Shown here piece by piece: positions 2,441 through 22,902 of a DNA stretch of 64,000 nucleotides. Source of the DNA: Escherichia coli (GTDB taxonomy: Bacteria > Pseudomonadota > Gammaproteobacteria > Enterobacterales > Enterobacteriaceae); NCBI RefSeq assembly GCF_003790525.1, contig NZ_CP033635.1, one strand, 5' to 3'. Each line of letters begins with the position of its first letter. Position 1 is the stretch's first letter. The notes beneath the pieces were generated by a model, which saw nothing but the letters and a program-made list of their open reading frames with translations, was not told the DNA's origin and searched no databases. The translations under genes and the position numbers were made by a program.

Positions 2441-3676
2441 ATGATTACACATTTCCGTCAAGCTATAGAAGAAACGCTGCCCTGGCTTTCCTCTTTTGGC
2501 TCTGACCCAACGGGTGGAATGACCCGTTTACTTTATTCGCCGGAATGGTTGGAAACCCAGCAGCAATTTAAAAAAAGAATGGCAGCAAGCGGGCTGGAAA
2601 CACGTTTCGATGAAGTGGGGAATTTATACGGTCGCCTGAGTGGCACCGAATATCCACAGGAAGTGGTTCTGAGCGGTTCGCATATCGATACCGTGGTTAA
2701 CGGCGGTAACCTCGACGGACAATTCGGCGCACTGGCGGCGTGGCTGGCAATTGACTGGTTGAAAACGCAATACGGCGCGCCGTTACGTACGGTCGAAGTG
2801 GTGGCGATGGCAGAAGAAGAAGGCAGCCGCTTCCCGTATGTCTTCTGGGGCAGTAAAAATATCTTTGGGCTGGCGAATCCTGACGACGTGCGGAATATCT
2901 GTGATGCCAAAGGAAATAGTTTTGTCGATGCGATGAAGGCTTGCGGATTTACTCTGCCGAACGCCCCACTAACTCCGCGTCAGGATATTAAAGCCTTTGT
3001 CGAACTGCATATCGAACAGGGCTGTGTGCTGGAAAGTAATGGGCAATCAATTGGCGTGGTGAATGCAATTGTCGGGCAACGTCGCTATACGGTGACGCTG
3101 AATGGCGAATCAAACCATGCAGGCACCACGCCGATGGGTTATCGTCGTGATACGGTTTACGCTTTCAGTCGCATTTGCCATCAGTCGATCGAAAAAGCGA
3201 AAAAGATGGGCGACCCGCTGGTGCTGACCTTTGGCAAGGTGGAACCGCGCCCGAATACGGTAAATGTGGTGCCGGGGAAAACCACGTTCACCATTGATTG
3301 TCGTCATACCGACGCCGCCGTGCTGCGCAATTTCACCCAACAGTTAGAAAACGACATGCGGGCGATTTGCGATGAAATGGACATTGGTATTGATATCGAT
3401 TTATGGATGGACGAAGAACCGGTGCCGATGAATAAGGAGCTGGTCGCCACCCTGACAGAATTGTGTGAAAGCGAAAAACTGAATTACCGGGTAATGCACA
3501 GTGGTGCCGGGCACGACGCACAAATTTTCGCGCCTCGCGTGCCGACCTGCATGATTTTCATTCCCAGCATCAACGGGATCAGCCATAACCCGGCGGAACG
3601 CACCAATATTACCGACCTTGCCGAAGGGGTCAAAACGTTGGCACTCATGCTTTATCAACTTGCCTGGCAGAAATAA
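2441..3676 (+). CDS. allC: Allantoate amidohydrolase
   Basis: ORF track 2423..3676; recognised AllC; start moved to internal Met (MITHFRQAIEE...) to match the known ~411 aa protein. Confidence 0.9.
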   Translation: MITHFRQAIEETLPWLSSFGSDPTGGMTRLLYSPEWLETQQQFKKRMAASGLETRFDEVGNLYGRLSGTEYPQEVVLSGSHIDTVVNGGNLDGQFGALAAWLAIDWLKTQYGAPLRTVEVVAMAEEEGSRFPYVFWGSKNIFGLANPDDVRNICDAKGNSFVDAMKACGFTLPNAPLTPRQDIKAFVELHIEQGCVLESNGQSIGVVNAIVGQRRYTVTLNGESNHAGTTPMGYRRDTVYAFSRICHQSIEKAKKMGDPLVLTFGKVEPRPNTVNVVPGKTTFTIDCRHTDAAVLRNFTQQLENDMRAICDEMDIGIDIDLWMDEEPVPMNKELVATLTELCESEKLNYRVMHSGAGHDAQIFAPRVPTCMIFIPSINGISHNPAERTNITDLAEGVKTLALMLYQLAWQK

Positions 3677-18411: not shown

Positions 18412-20826
18412 TCATCCCGCAAACTGCCTGAACAGCGCCTTACCCTTAACCAGTCGCGCACCCAGCCAGCCGCCGCAAAGCGACAGCAGCAGCGCACCGC
18501 TGCACGGCAGCACAATCCACAATCGCCAGTCTGGCTCCCACGGGAAATCAAACACTTTCGCCTGCAACACTGCCAGCGCCGTTTCCGCACCAATTGCGGC
18601 CACCAGGCCAGAAACAAACCCAAGCATGGCGAACTCACACCACAATGTCGTGCGCAGCAGCTTTTTCCCCGCACCGAGTGTGCGCCACACCACCAGCTCC
18701 TGATGACGCTGACGCATTCCCACCTGCACCTGTGCCAGCAACAGCAACATACCGCAGGCGGTGACCAGCACCACCATCACCTCCAGCGCCCGACTTACCT
18801 GCTCCAGCACCTGACCGACCTGTTTTAAAATCGCGCCAATGTCTAACAGGCTAATGGTCGGGAACTGGCGGTTGAGTTGCGTCAACATGCCGTTGCCATT
18901 CTCCCAGCGGAAACTGGTAAGCCAGCTCTGCGGTTGCCCGTCTAATGCCCCTTCAGGGAAAATAAAATAGAAATTAGGCCGCAGACTTTCCCAGTCCACT
19001 TTGCGCAGGCTGGTCACTTTAGCGCGGAACTCCTGGGTATCGCCCATAAAAGTCACGGTATCACCGAGGGCAACGTTTAAGCGTTTCGCCAGCCCCTCTT
19101 CCATCGACACTTCATCGGCTTTTGGCGGCCAGTTACCGGCGACAATCGGATTATGATCGGGCCGCGTATTTTGCCAGGTAAGATTGAGTTCGCGATTGAG
19201 CGCCTCATCTTCATTGCCTTCTGTCGGCTTGCCGTTAATCGCCGTCAGTCTCGCCCGCACCACCGGATAAAACGATTCCGGGACTATCTGATGTTCCGCG
19301 AGGAACGCTTTTAGCGGTGCTACCTGTTCTGTGGCGATGTTAATTAAAAAGTAGTTCGGGCTTTCTGGAGGTAGCTGCTGCTGCCAGCGGTCGAGCAGAT
19401 CGCCACGCAACACCAGCAGCAGTGCCAGCAGCATAAAGGAGAGCGAAAATGCCGAAAGCTGGCTTAACGTTGACCACGGCTGACGTAACAGGCGGCTAAC
19501 CGCCAGGCGCAGAGGCAGCGATTTCAGCGTCATGCGGCGAAGTACATTCAGCAGCATCCAGCCCAGCACACCGCACAGCAAAGCCAGTACTACCGCGCCC
19601 GCCAGCACCGCCCAAAGCAGCATGCTGCCACCCATTAATCCGGCGAGCAGCAGCACAACCACTACACTGACAATCGGCAGATAAAACTTCAGCGGCCAGA
19701 CGTTCGCTACCACATCATTACGTAATACGCGTAAAGGCTGCGTTGCCAGCAACAAGCGGTATGGTCGTAGCCCCACCAGCAGCGAGATAACCGTCATGGT
19801 GCCGAGCGCCCACAGCCACGGCCAGAGGCTGGCTGGCGGTAGTGCGGCAGGCAGAACGGGCTTGAGCAGCACCATCAACACGTTTTCGAACAACAGGCCT
19901 ATCGCCCCACCGGTAACGGCTGAAAGCGTCAGCACCATCAACCACTGACCGACGATTAGCTTACGCAGTTGCGCTCGCCCTGCCCCCAGCGTTTTGAGGA
20001 TCGCCACCAGATCGTAGCGACTGCGACAGTAATGATTCATCGCCACCGCCACCGCTGCCACTGCCAGCAGCAAGGTCAGAAGCGCAGAAAGCAGCAGGAA
20101 CTGTTGCGAGCGTTCCATCGAGCGCCCCAGCGCGCCTTCGTCCTGTTCCAGACCGTACCAGCGTTGTTCGGGTTTAAGCTGGGGTAACAACCATTTCTCA
20201 TAGCCGTCGAGCTGGTTCTCGTTGCCGCCGAATTTATAGCGCCAGGTGACCCGACTTCCCGGCTGCACGGCTCCGGTTTTATCGACATCCGCCAGATTCA
20301 TCATCAGACGCGGAGCCATCTGGAAGGGGTTAAAACCGGAATCCGGTTCCTGAATCACTTCTCCGGCAATCCGCAAGGTGGCATCGCCCACGTCAATGGT
20401 GTCGCCCGTTTTCAGGTTAAGCAGTGCCATCAGGCGTGGGGCCAGCAATACGCTGCCCGCCTGCGGTTTCAGGCCTGGGGGATTGGTTTGCAGATCGCCA
20501 TACATCGGGTAGATATCATCCACCGCTTTGACGTTCGCCAGCTGCGGTGTGTCGCCTGCAAATGTCATGGTGGCGAAAGTCAGCTGCTTGCCGACTTTCA
20601 GGCCGCGCTTTTGCGCTTCCTCCAGCCACGCTTGCGGCACTTCGCGCGAACTGCGCAACGCCCGATCGCCCGCCATAAACTCCCGGCTTTGCTGGCTTAA
20701 GCCCTTCTCCATGCGATCGCTGATATTGCCCAGCGCCAGCACGCAGGCCACCGCCAGGCTTAGCGCCAGCCAGACAATTAATAGCGACGGCGAGCGCCAT
20801 TCGCGCCAGAACCAACGTGCAATCAT
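18412..20826 (-). CDS. ybbP: ABC transporter permease (FtsX-like, two domains)
   Basis: ORF track, 804 aa; recognised YbbP; 4-nt overlap with ybbA. Confidence 0.88.
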   Translation of the reverse strand: MIARWFWREWRSPSLLIVWLALSLAVACVLALGNISDRMEKGLSQQSREFMAGDRALRSSREVPQAWLEEAQKRGLKVGKQLTFATMTFAGDTPQLANVKAVDDIYPMYGDLQTNPPGLKPQAGSVLLAPRLMALLNLKTGDTIDVGDATLRIAGEVIQEPDSGFNPFQMAPRLMMNLADVDKTGAVQPGSRVTWRYKFGGNENQLDGYEKWLLPQLKPEQRWYGLEQDEGALGRSMERSQQFLLLSALLTLLLAVAAVAVAMNHYCRSRYDLVAILKTLGAGRAQLRKLIVGQWLMVLTLSAVTGGAIGLLFENVLMVLLKPVLPAALPPASLWPWLWALGTMTVISLLVGLRPYRLLLATQPLRVLRNDVVANVWPLKFYLPIVSVVVVLLLAGLMGGSMLLWAVLAGAVVLALLCGVLGWMLLNVLRRMTLKSLPLRLAVSRLLRQPWSTLSQLSAFSLSFMLLALLLVLRGDLLDRWQQQLPPESPNYFLINIATEQVAPLKAFLAEHQIVPESFYPVVRARLTAINGKPTEGNEDEALNRELNLTWQNTRPDHNPIVAGNWPPKADEVSMEEGLAKRLNVALGDTVTFMGDTQEFRAKVTSLRKVDWESLRPNFYFIFPEGALDGQPQSWLTSFRWENGNGMLTQLNRQFPTISLLDIGAILKQVGQVLEQVSRALEVMVVLVTACGMLLLLAQVQVGMRQRHQELVVWRTLGAGKKLLRTTLWCEFAMLGFVSGLVAAIGAETALAVLQAKVFDFPWEPDWRLWIVLPCSGALLLSLCGGWLGARLVKGKALFRQFAG

Positions 20827-21509
20827 GTTTCCTCCTGCAACTGCCCGTTCACCAGCCGTAAGCAGCGGTCGCAGCGTGCCGCCAGTTGCAGGTCGTGGGT
20901 CACCATAATCAACGTGGTGCCATGTTCACGGTTGAGGGAAAACAGCAGGTCGGCAATTTTATCGCCCGTCTGGCGGTCAAGATTGCCGGTGGGTTCGTCG
21001 GCAAACAGCACATCAGGCCGACCATTAAAAGCTCGCGCCAGCGCCACTCGTTGCTGTTCGCCGCCGGAAAGCTGTGCCGGAAGATGATCCAGACGTTTAC
21101 CCAGTCCTAACTGTTCGAGCAACGCTTTTGCCCCGTTACGACTTTCTGCGCTACTCTCACCACGCAGCAGCGCCGGAAGCTCGACGTTTTCCAGCGCGTT
21201 AAGGGTAGGAATTAACATAAATGACTGAAAAACAAAGCCTACGTGCTTCGCGCGCAACTTTGCCCGCGCTTCTTCGTCCATATTATGTAGCGGTTGTCCC
21301 ACCAGACTCACTTCGCCACTGCTGCCGTCATCCAGCCCGGCGAGGATCGCCAGCAAGGTTGACTTACCCGATCCCGACTCGCCCACCAGCGCGATGGTCT
21401 CGCCACGTTTGACAACCAGCTCAACTCCGGTGAGGATGGAGAGTTCATGCTCCCCCTGACCGACGGACTTCTTAAGATGATGAACTTCAACAATGTTTTC
21501 CGCTGGCAT
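20823..21509 (-). CDS. ybbA: ABC transporter ATP-binding protein
   Basis: ORF track, 228 aa; Walker A GESGSGKST and signature LSGGEQQR. Confidence 0.9.
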   Translation of the reverse strand: MPAENIVEVHHLKKSVGQGEHELSILTGVELVVKRGETIALVGESGSGKSTLLAILAGLDDGSSGEVSLVGQPLHNMDEEARAKLRAKHVGFVFQSFMLIPTLNALENVELPALLRGESSAESRNGAKALLEQLGLGKRLDHLPAQLSGGEQQRVALARAFNGRPDVLFADEPTGNLDRQTGDKIADLLFSLNREHGTTLIMVTHDLQLAARCDRCLRLVNGQLQEET

Positions 21510-22103
21510 TTGCCCTTCCTGTTCCTGGTCCTGTTAACCTTCCGTGCCGCTGCAGCGGACACGTTATTGATTCTGGGTGATAGCCTGAGCGCCGGGTATC
21601 GAATGTCTGCCAGCGCGGCCTGGCCTGCCTTGTTGAATGATAAGTGGCAGAGTAAAACGTCGGTAGTCAATGCCAGCATCAGCGGCGACACCTCGCAACA
21701 AGGGCTGGCGCGCCTTCCGGCTCTGCTGAAACAGCATCAGCCGCGCTGGGTGCTGGTAGAACTGGGCGGCAATGACGGTTTGCGTGGTTTTCAGCCACAA
21801 CAAACCGAGCAAACGCTGCGCCAGATTTTGCAGGATGTCAAAGCCGCCAACGCTGAACCATTGTTAATGCAAATACGTCTGCCTGCAAACTATGGTCGCC
21901 GTTATAATGAAGCCTTTAGCGCCATTTACCCCAAACTCGCCAAAGAGTTTGATGTTCCGCTGCTGCCCTTTTTTATGGAAGAGGTCTACCTCAAACCACA
22001 ATGGATGCAGGATGACGGTATTCATCCCAACCGCGACGCCCAGCCGTTTATTGCCGACTGGATGGCGAAGCAGTTGCAGCCTTTAGTAAATCATGACTCA
22101 TAA
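21477..22103 (+). CDS. tesA: Acyl-CoA thioesterase I / lysophospholipase L1 (SGNH hydrolase, periplasmic)
   Basis: ORF track 21447..22103; start placed at MMNFNNV (signal peptide, GDSLS motif); 5' end overlaps the ybbA 5' end on the opposite strand. Confidence 0.88.
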   Translation: MMNFNNVFRWHLPFLFLVLLTFRAAAADTLLILGDSLSAGYRMSASAAWPALLNDKWQSKTSVVNASISGDTSQQGLARLPALLKQHQPRWVLVELGGNDGLRGFQPQQTEQTLRQILQDVKAANAEPLLMQIRLPANYGRRYNEAFSAIYPKLAKEFDVPLLPFFMEEVYLKPQWMQDDGIHPNRDAQPFIADWMAKQLQPLVNHDS

Positions 22104-22902
22104 AGCAACGGAGATCCTGACAGGTAAAGTTATGCAAAAATCGGTCTTAATTACCGGATGTTCCAGTGGAATTGGCCTGGAAAGCGCGCTCGAATTAAAA
22201 CGCCAGGGTTTTCATGTGCTGGCAGGTTGCCGGAAAGCGGATGATGTTGAGCGCATGAACAGCATGGGATTTACCGGCGTGTTGATCGATCTGGATTCAC
22301 CAGAAAGTGTTGATCGCGCAGCCGACGAAGTGATCGCCCTGACCGATAATTGTCTGTATGGGATCTTTAACAATGCCGGATTCGGCATGTATGGCCCCCT
22401 TTCCACCATCAGCCGTGTGCAGATGGAACAGCAGTTTTCCGCCAACTTTTTCGGCGCACACCAGCTCACCATGCGCCTGTTACCCGTGATGTTACCGCAC
22501 GGTGAAGGACGTATTGTGATGACCTCATCGGTGATGGGATTAATCTCCACGCCGGGTCGTGGCGCTTACGCGGCCAGTAAATATGCGCTGGAGGCGTGGT
22601 CAGACGCACTGCGCATGGAGCTACGTCACAGCGGAATTAAAGTTAGCCTGATCGAACCCGGTCCCATTCGTACTCGCTTCACCGACAACGTCAACCAGAC
22701 GCAAAGTGATAAACCTGTCGAAAATCCCGGCATCGCCGCCCGCTTTACGTTGGGACCGGAAGCGGTGGTCGACAAAGTGCGCCATGCTTTTATTAGCGAG
22801 AAGCCGAAGATGCGCTATCCAGTAACGCTGGTGACCTGGGCAGTAATGGTGCTTAAGCGCCTGCTGCCGGGGCGCGTGATGGACAAAATATTGCAGGGGT
22901 GA
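22093..22902 (+). CDS. ybbO: Short-chain dehydrogenase/reductase
   Basis: ORF track, 269 aa; TGCSSGIG Rossmann motif; recognised YbbO; exact start uncertain. Confidence 0.85.
   Translation: MTHKATEILTGKVMQKSVLITGCSSGIGLESALELKRQGFHVLAGCRKADDVERMNSMGFTGVLIDLDSPESVDRAADEVIALTDNCLYGIFNNAGFGMYGPLSTISRVQMEQQFSANFFGAHQLTMRLLPVMLPHGEGRIVMTSSVMGLISTPGRGAYAASKYALEAWSDALRMELRHSGIKVSLIEPGPIRTRFTDNVNQTQSDKPVENPGIAARFTLGPEAVVDKVRHAFISEKPKMRYPVTLVTWAVMVLKRLLPGRVMDKILQG

Follow-up and report, generated by a model that had tools for sequence, protein, structure and literature searches.

The window analyzed here, a stretch of 64,000 nucleotides of Escherichia coli DNA, contains two divergently oriented genes, tesA and ybbA, each followed on its own strand by a second gene. 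Between 20800 and 22150 it is a 100% match to E. coli SMS-3-5. The coding sequences of the locus, in window coordinates, are:

18412..20826, minus strand: ybbP, permease of the same transporter as YbbA (open reading frame, NF041854)
20823..21509, minus strand: ybbA, 228-aa ABC ATPase of the type VII transporter YbbAP (open reading frame, NF007879)
21477..22103, plus strand: tesA, thioesterase I / protease I / lysophospholipase L1, 208 aa from 21477 or 207 aa from 21480 (open reading frame)
22093..22902, plus strand: ybbO, SDR aldehyde reductase, 3' of tesA (open reading frame, annotation and family search)

TesA scored 413.3 bits against the NCBIfam equivalog NF007819 (cut-off 270) over residues 1-206, YbbA scored 478.3 bits against the NCBIfam equivalog NF007879 (cut-off 336), and YbbP scored 1461.6 bits against NF041854 (cut-off 999). 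YbbA has a Walker A motif (GESGSGKS) and aligns over residues 1-227 with the YbbA chains of PDB 9GE6-8 (E 5.9e-145). In a 32-sequence alignment of TesA homologues (38-69% identity), G34, D35 and S36 (the GDS block), D180 and H183 (catalytic triad) are invariant. The N-terminus of TesA has a conserved n/h/c pattern resembling a signal peptide (MNFNNVFRWH-LPFLFLVLLTF-RAAA, with ADTLL after the predicted cleavage point) and is putatively cleavable. Cho & Cronan reportedly described, in 1993, a TesA leader of 26 residues.

YbbAP and TesA form a published physical complex in which TesA docks on YbbP (PLoS Biol 2025, PMC12646458; PDB 9GE6-9GE8). An earlier note on this DNA had called the two gene products a periplasmic lipase and an ABC transporter; they are, as the literature already has it, partners of one complex (PMC12646458). 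The same paper used the co-location of these genes and the partial overlap of their operons to support the protein-protein interaction, and it does not treat start codons, promoters, antisense RNA or the phylogeny of the spacing.

The central feature of the locus is the segment in which both strands are coding:

21477..21509, both strands: dual-coding segment, in which tesA codons 1-11 face ybbA codons 11-1 (sequence and open reading frames)

In K-12 (NC_000913.3), tesA (519139..519765, minus strand) and ybbA (519733..520419, plus strand) are annotated with the same 33 bp overlap. The RefSeq PGAP annotation of SMS-3-5 starts tesA at the second ATG (21480 in the window), giving an overlap of 30 bp. 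The claim of the earlier note that tesA and ybbA lie on opposite strands with overlapping 5' coding ends is thus borne out by the open reading frames, the family models and both annotations. The stop codon of ybbA overlaps the start codon of ybbP in an ATGA at 20823-20826, a translational linkage, and the stop of tesA and the start of ybbO overlap by 11 nt (22093-22103). Together with the tesA/ybbA overlap, these junctions make ybbP-ybbA/tesA-ybbO a block without any intergenic DNA.

On the plus strand, the TesA frame (MMNFNNVFRWH...) begins with ATG ATG AAC at 21477/21480, and on the minus strand the YbbA frame (MPAENIVEVHH...) begins with the ATG at 21509. Because the length of the overlap is a multiple of 3, the codons of the two genes are in register. 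Within the shared 33 bp, tesA codon i faces ybbA codon 12-i, with position 1 opposite position 3 and position 2 opposite position 2. The tandem ATGATG of tesA is the reverse complement of CATCAT, which encodes His10-His11 of YbbA. Among 16 Enterobacterales, the mean major-allele frequency in the shared block was 0.94 (range 0.92-0.96), with no codon position relaxed, and in the single-coding flanks the frequency at third positions was 0.58-0.72.

The start of ybbA was determined from the sequence surrounding it and from related proteins. The ATG at 21509 is the sole ATG, GTG or TTG between an in-frame stop at 21536 and the Walker A motif, and members of the LolD and MacB families align with YbbA from residues 5-9 onward. 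It is preceded by a ribosome-binding sequence:

21513..21520, minus strand: ybbA Shine-Dalgarno sequence, AGGAAGGG, anti-SD duplex of -7.0 kcal/mol

This Shine-Dalgarno sequence is encoded opposite signal-peptide codons Pro13-Phe14-Leu15 of tesA, and in the alignment of 16 Enterobacterales it is conserved as CCTTCC. We regard the prediction of the ybbA start at 21509 as unambiguous.

The start of tesA needed checking, because the gene lengths in deposited close homologues vary (194, 197, 204, 207, 208, 218 or 220 aa). We compared the window sequence with 15 other Enterobacterales at four candidate starts, all on the plus strand:

21480, plus strand: ATG, overlap 30 bp, SD -3.2 kcal/mol, kept by all but one of the 15 other Enterobacterales
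21477, plus strand: ATG, overlap 33 bp, SD -3.2 kcal/mol, the K-12 reference start, ACG in three genera
21447, plus strand: ATG, overlap 63 bp, SD -8.4 kcal/mol and upstream of the transcription start site (TSS), missing in two genera
21510, plus strand: TTG, overlap 0 bp, SD -1.5 kcal/mol (equivalent to no SD), not conserved

The exception at 21480 is Photorhabdus, which has CTG at the equivalent position and uses the ATG equivalent to 21477. By this comparison, the conserved tesA start is the second ATG, 21480. Orthologue comparison, the position of the TSS (see below) and the logic of the signal peptide together support the overlap as genuine, with a predicted length of 30 or 33 bp. The supplements of the TRAINSPOTTER N-terminomics study were searched for tesA and ybbA, and neither gene was entered there.

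It is very improbable that the overlap is an annotation artefact in which TesA starts at the in-frame TTG at 21510 (197 aa) or later and the two coding sequences merely abut. Many deposited homologues are annotated with 194-197 aa, some gene callers choose 197 aa, and Klebsiella KPN_00472 is annotated as 594 nt, but the TTG is TGG in Citrobacter werkmanii and is absent in Serratia, Rahnella, Photorhabdus and Providencia, whereas the ATG of MNF... is kept. The Shine-Dalgarno sequences of the tesA ATGs are weak (-3.2 kcal/mol), but the TTG at -1.5 kcal/mol is without one. A start at the TTG would also leave a leader of 15 residues and remove the charged Arg9/Lys n-region of the signal peptide. 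Divergent overlaps are often misannotations of start codons (Palleja 2008), but this one is shorter than 60 bp and therefore falls below the size class found to be artefactual in that study, and it is present in both the curated K-12 and the PGAP annotations.

We give equally little credence to a larger overlap of 63 bp, with TesA starting at the upstream ATG at 21447 (218 aa, MLPLTDGLLK-MMNF...). This ATG has the strongest Shine-Dalgarno sequence (GGAG 5 nt upstream, -8.4 kcal/mol), is found in most Enterobacteriaceae, and is used by some gene callers to give proteins of 218-220 aa. However, it is only 2 nt downstream of the mapped TSS at 21445, so its Shine-Dalgarno sequence would be outside the mRNA, and tesA-sense RNA further upstream, within ybbA, amounts to about 0.5 RPM. 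The ATG is absent in loci L003 and L005 of our comparison, with a stop codon just upstream in L003, and its presence elsewhere is accounted for by YbbA His21 (CAT) on the other strand. An in-frame ATG with a strong GGAG sequence does explain the public TesA annotations of 218-220 aa.

The promoter of tesA was located from a published transcription start site, as given in the tesA entry of that data set:

21445, plus strand: tesA TSS, U00096.2 519021(-), 45 reads, 32-nt 5' UTR (Kim et al. 2012, PMC3415461, supplementary file 2)
21409..21414, plus strand: tesA promoter -35, TTGACA (perfect), within ybbA codons 32-34, in the sequence printed upstream of the TSS in the PMC3415461 entry
21432..21437, plus strand: tesA promoter -10, GAGGAT (weak, 3/6), after a 17-nt spacer, within ybbA codons 24-26

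The upstream sequence printed by Kim et al. 2012 was located on K-12, confirming a coordinate shift of +776, and the window is collinear with K-12 in this interval (11 substitutions in 1101 nt and zero indels). The TSS lies 64 nt within the ybbA coding sequence. In a weighted scan, TTGACA-17-GAGGAT was the top sigma-70-like site on the plus strand, with a predicted TSS 1 nt from that observed. A scan for the strict sigma-70 consensus from 21150 to 21850 found no site; it missed the tesA promoter because the -10 matches at only 3/6 positions despite the perfect -35.

The -35 is identical in 14 of the 16 Enterobacterales. Of 32 third-codon positions of ybbA, only three are invariant, and two of these (21411 and 21414) are in the tesA -35 (hypergeometric probability approximately 0.006). 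At the -10, alignment columns A54, A57 and T58 are invariant among the 16 sequences. In Photorhabdus and Providencia, a weaker -35 is accompanied by a -10 resembling TATAGT. The tesA -35 is visibly constrained inside ybbA, which shows that the promoter embedded there is under selection but does not show this for coupling between the genes.

The ybbA-sense 5' ends in the published entries for this interval are weak; they are listed here with the candidate promoter:

21851, minus strand: Cappable-seq 5' end of ybbA-sense RNA (U00096.2 518615, with a relative score of 2.45), 342 nt ahead of the ATG
21889-21884 and 21865-21860, minus strand: candidate ybbA promoter, TTTGCA and AACAAT with an 18-nt spacer, predicted TSS at most 2 nt from 21851
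21664 and 21896, minus strand: weak 5' ends of ybbA-sense RNA, each with 2 reads, giving 5' UTRs of 155 and 387 nt (Kim et al. 2012)
22078 and 22298, minus strand: further weak Cappable-seq ends, 569 and 789 nt ahead of the ybbA start codon

Among the Cappable-seq entries for this interval (K-12 plus strand), ybbA-sense scores are near threshold and no end is closer to the ATG than 342 nt. Every ybbA-sense 5' end mapped in the two sets of entries falls in tesA or ybbO, 155-790 nt upstream of the ATG. The candidate promoter for the end at -342 lacks conservation at synonymous sites when other genera are compared. A search of the SMRT-Cappable-seq supplements for tesA and ybbA gave no entry for either gene. 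The earlier note had placed each promoter inside the coding sequence of the partner, and the mapped ends agree with this for both directions, with the tesA TSS in ybbA and the ybbA-sense 5' ends in tesA or ybbO. A single bidirectional promoter, back-to-back and under a common regulator, was also considered; the mapped promoters instead face each other at a distance of approximately 400 bp, and it was rejected on that ground. Further into ybbA, the entries of Kim et al. 2012 include a weak minus-strand 5' end (3 reads) at U00096.2 519490, approximately 20976 in the window, 150 nt upstream of ybbP.

The two transcripts pair in vivo. Huang et al. 2020 (PMC7373196) captured products of RNase III in E. 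coli with p19, and their Table S3 includes several duplexes from this locus:

21512..21534, both strands: sense/antisense duplex cut by RNase III in vivo, both strands sequenced (PMC7373196 Table S3, U00096.2 518931-518954)
approximately 21584-21605, 21761-21782 and 21950-21971, both strands: further p19 duplexes in the tesA coding sequence (Table S3 rows 518858-518888, 518681-518705 and 518492-518516)

The first of these, placed by locating its sequence on K-12, spans the ybbA Shine-Dalgarno sequence and tesA codons 12-19. The tesA duplexes in Table S3 are perfectly paired, 21-22 bp long, and have 2-nt overhangs. Their distribution across tesA implies that ybbA-sense RNA covers most of the gene. 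In six data sets (PMC7373196 Table S1b), p19 dsRNA reads amounted to 182-2396 RPM for tesA, compared to 11-86 for ybbA and 9-25 for ybbO. In wild-type cells, total RNA over tesA was 29.7 RPM sense and 48.7 RPM antisense, and the antisense RNA of neighboring genes was ≤2 RPM (PMC7373196 Table S1c). The text of PMC7373196 does not discuss tesA.

Sense RNA of tesA was 29.7 RPM in the wild type, 27.2 in rnc-14 and 27.4 in rnc-38, and that of ybbA was 21.7, 13.6 and 17.1 RPM, respectively. Neither sense RNA increased in either RNase III mutant, and there was thus no de-repression; any RNase III-dependent repression would therefore be small at steady state. Antisense coupling, which the earlier note had proposed, stands in so far as it means physical pairing in vivo, given the duplexes and the dsRNA hot spot. 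A regulatory effect does not follow, given the sense-RNA levels in the rnc mutants.

In K-12, the antisense RNA over tesA (48.7 RPM over 627 nt; window 21510-22103, minus strand) is denser than the ybbA sense RNA (21.7 RPM over 687 nt). This difference suggests that most ybbA-sense RNA begun in tesA may stop before it reaches ybbA. This RNA antisense to tesA may be either a leader subject to attenuation or an antisense RNA in its own right.

We compared the spacing of the two genes in other genomes. A profile of diverse TesA homologues gave 80 genomic loci from Enterobacterales, Vibrionales, Alteromonadales, Pseudomonadales, Oceanospirillales, one Xanthomonadales-type genus and one betaproteobacterium. 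In this set, the members of which are phylogenetically non-independent (15 are from Pseudomonas, for example), a YbbA homologue was immediately upstream of tesA and on the opposite strand in 80/80 loci. Start geometry was determined for 77 loci from anchors independent of annotation (the GDS block of TesA and the Walker A motif of YbbA), together with a signal-peptide/beta1 criterion:

overlap of 30-51 nt: 21/77 loci, all Enterobacterales plus Shewanella
overlap of 2 nt, with the start codons sharing CATG: 14/77 loci, in Vibrio, Psychromonas, Salinivibrio, Rheinheimera, Dokdonella, Marinobacterium, Nitrincola and others
abutting, CATATG: 4/77 loci, in Pseudoalteromonas and Aliidiomarina
gap of 1-35 nt: 23/77 loci, in Pseudomonas (10 nt) and others
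gap of 36-100 nt: 13/77 loci, in various lineages
gap of more than 100 nt: 2/77 loci, in Marinobacter and Salinicola

The starts overlap or are at most 35 nt apart in 62 of the 77 loci, so in approximately 80% of the sampled loci the space between the genes is too small for a promoter. The length of the overlap ranges between lineages from +51 to -113 nt, with a single outlier at -526, and the exact overlap is therefore not conserved outside the Enterobacterales. This comparison of spacing is the new contribution of our analysis. The overlap is rare but conserved and was already known, having been annotated, remarked on (PMC12646458) and catalogued (PMC12288877), and the overlapping transcription was likewise known.

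The explanation that we favor, and consider fairly probable, is that the genuine overlap is the Enterobacterales form of an old head-to-head pair with almost no spacer, and that face-to-face transcription and duplex formation cause a mild reciprocal damping. The genes of the two partners in one lipid-hydrolase/ABC-transporter complex, TesA and YbbAP, would have been placed head-to-head. As no DNA is left between them, each gene carries signals of its partner. Codons 22-35 of ybbA contain the tesA promoter (-35 at 21409-14, TSS at 21445), and the signal-peptide codons of tesA contain the ribosome-binding site of ybbA. Transcription in the ybbA sense begins 155-790 nt upstream, in tesA or ybbO, at promoters that are weak and labile in evolution. 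Because the promoters are embedded in this way, the tesA and ybbA mRNAs are complementary over approximately 220-400 nt or more, far beyond the 33 coding bases. These complementary mRNAs pair in vivo and are cut by RNase III, and face-to-face transcription together with the duplexes may mildly damp both operons reciprocally, in the manner of a divergent excludon and without an on/off switch. The overlap itself may have arisen when the start of tesA moved upstream onto the complement of His10/His11 of YbbA (CAT opposite ATG), a shift that would have lengthened the n-region of the signal peptide.

Several observations weigh against coupling. The evidence for ybbA transcription start sites is weak in the entries for this interval (ends with 2 reads apiece in Kim et al. 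2012, scores close to threshold in Cappable-seq), and mutual exclusion between two subunits of one complex would be odd. The rnc data lend no encouragement to the idea of mutual interference with functional consequences.

We think it unlikely, but by no means negligible, that the overlap is real yet neutral, the product of genome compaction and start-codon drift in co-inherited partners, with the antisense RNA and dsRNA tolerated as noise. The wide drift of overlap or gap length between lineages, the weak and non-conserved ybbA-sense promoters, and the failure of either mRNA to rise in the rnc mutants are all consistent with neutrality, and some p19 dsRNA was recovered from 87% of E. coli genes (Huang et al., PMC7373196). 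However, near-zero spacing has been kept across the Gammaproteobacteria (62/77 loci at ≤35 nt), tesA dsRNA is 20-100 times that of its neighbors, and antisense RNA over tesA is at least equal to sense. The constraint on the tesA -35 inside ybbA also argues against neutrality, although it speaks for the promoter and not for coupling.

A stronger proposal, which we consider doubtful, is that the spacer-free layout, from Vibrio (CATG) to the Enterobacterales (30-33 bp), is a selected cis-acting device that sets the TesA:YbbAP ratio by collision of RNA polymerases and by duplexes. The abundant tesA antisense RNA would then be a dedicated regulator, or a long attenuated leader tying the output of the hydrolase to transcription of the transporter.

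The excludon concept is said to come from Sesto et al. Like other divergent excludons, tesA and ybbA are divergent neighbors whose transcripts overlap at their 5' ends and are substrates of RNase III (PMC12288877). ExcludonFinder (NAR 2025, PMC12288877 Table 1) lists 16 divergent excludons in E. coli, this pair included; the listing criterion was presence in at least 50% of 58 MG1655 RNA-seq samples. In the published data as re-mapped here, the pair has overlapping 5' transcript ends, RNA pairing and RNase III processing, as expected of a divergent excludon. Most excludons overlap in their UTRs only, whereas tesA and ybbA also overlap in coding sequence; and the functions of excludon partners are typically antagonistic, whereas the products of tesA and ybbA are partners of one complex. 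For tesA-ybbA, reciprocal expression of the excludon type is a prediction, and rnc had no effect on steady-state RNA there.

The closest parallels in the p19 data are asd-yhgN and other divergent pairs overlapping at their 5' ends, which lead the top dsRNA clusters (PMC7373196). The asd-yhgN pair resembles tesA-ybbA in having face-to-face promoters and duplexes of 21-22 bp with 2-nt overhangs, with dsRNA confined to the shared 5' region. At tesA-ybbA, in contrast to asd-yhgN, the duplexes extend over most of the coding sequence of one partner because ybbA-sense RNA starts far upstream.

Divergent overlaps make up approximately 1% of well-characterized overlaps between prokaryotic coding sequences, and all those examined that exceed 60 bp were misannotations (Palleja 2008). 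In an analysis of E. coli, 2 of 663 overlapping adjacent pairs were divergent (PMC4161906). Like other short head-to-head overlaps, that of tesA and ybbA is divergent and created by the position of the start codons. Unlike the misannotated overlaps of more than 60 bp, it is short, conserved throughout the order, and backed by a mapped TSS and by the N-termini of orthologues.

If the coupling is functional, it would be a case of stoichiometry control, by antisense RNA or collision, between partners of one envelope machine, a departure from the usual excludon logic of opposing functions. The layout also has practical consequences. The leaderless form of TesA, 'TesA, is heavily engineered for fatty-acid production. 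Deletions of tesA and swaps of its promoter inevitably change the 5' coding end, Shine-Dalgarno sequence and leader of ybbA, and edits in ybbA codons 1-35 strike the tesA promoter. The locus is also a clean test case for programs that call start codons, the same gene having been annotated with 194 to 220 aa.

Some individual loci in the comparative set had features of their own. In Candidatus Pantoea persica (L019, 3100-4000), the match to YbbA is in three fragments (residues 1-26, 140-190 and 192-218) and that to TesA is partial; both genes are probably decaying in this symbiont genome. In Pectobacterium betavasculorum (L013, approximately 3400-3600), the TesA GDS block and the YbbA Walker A motif are 45 nt further apart than in related genera. 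The Met normally found in YbbA is lost there (..TAHVENILEVHH), the sole start is 15 codons upstream, and the n-region of TesA is longer; the overlap is possibly 51-78 nt, with the insertion apparently read in both frames. The CATG palindrome common to both starts recurs in distant non-enterobacterial Gammaproteobacteria (L020, L022, L024, L025, L027, L033, L037, L055, L065 and L073, at approximately 3430-3500).
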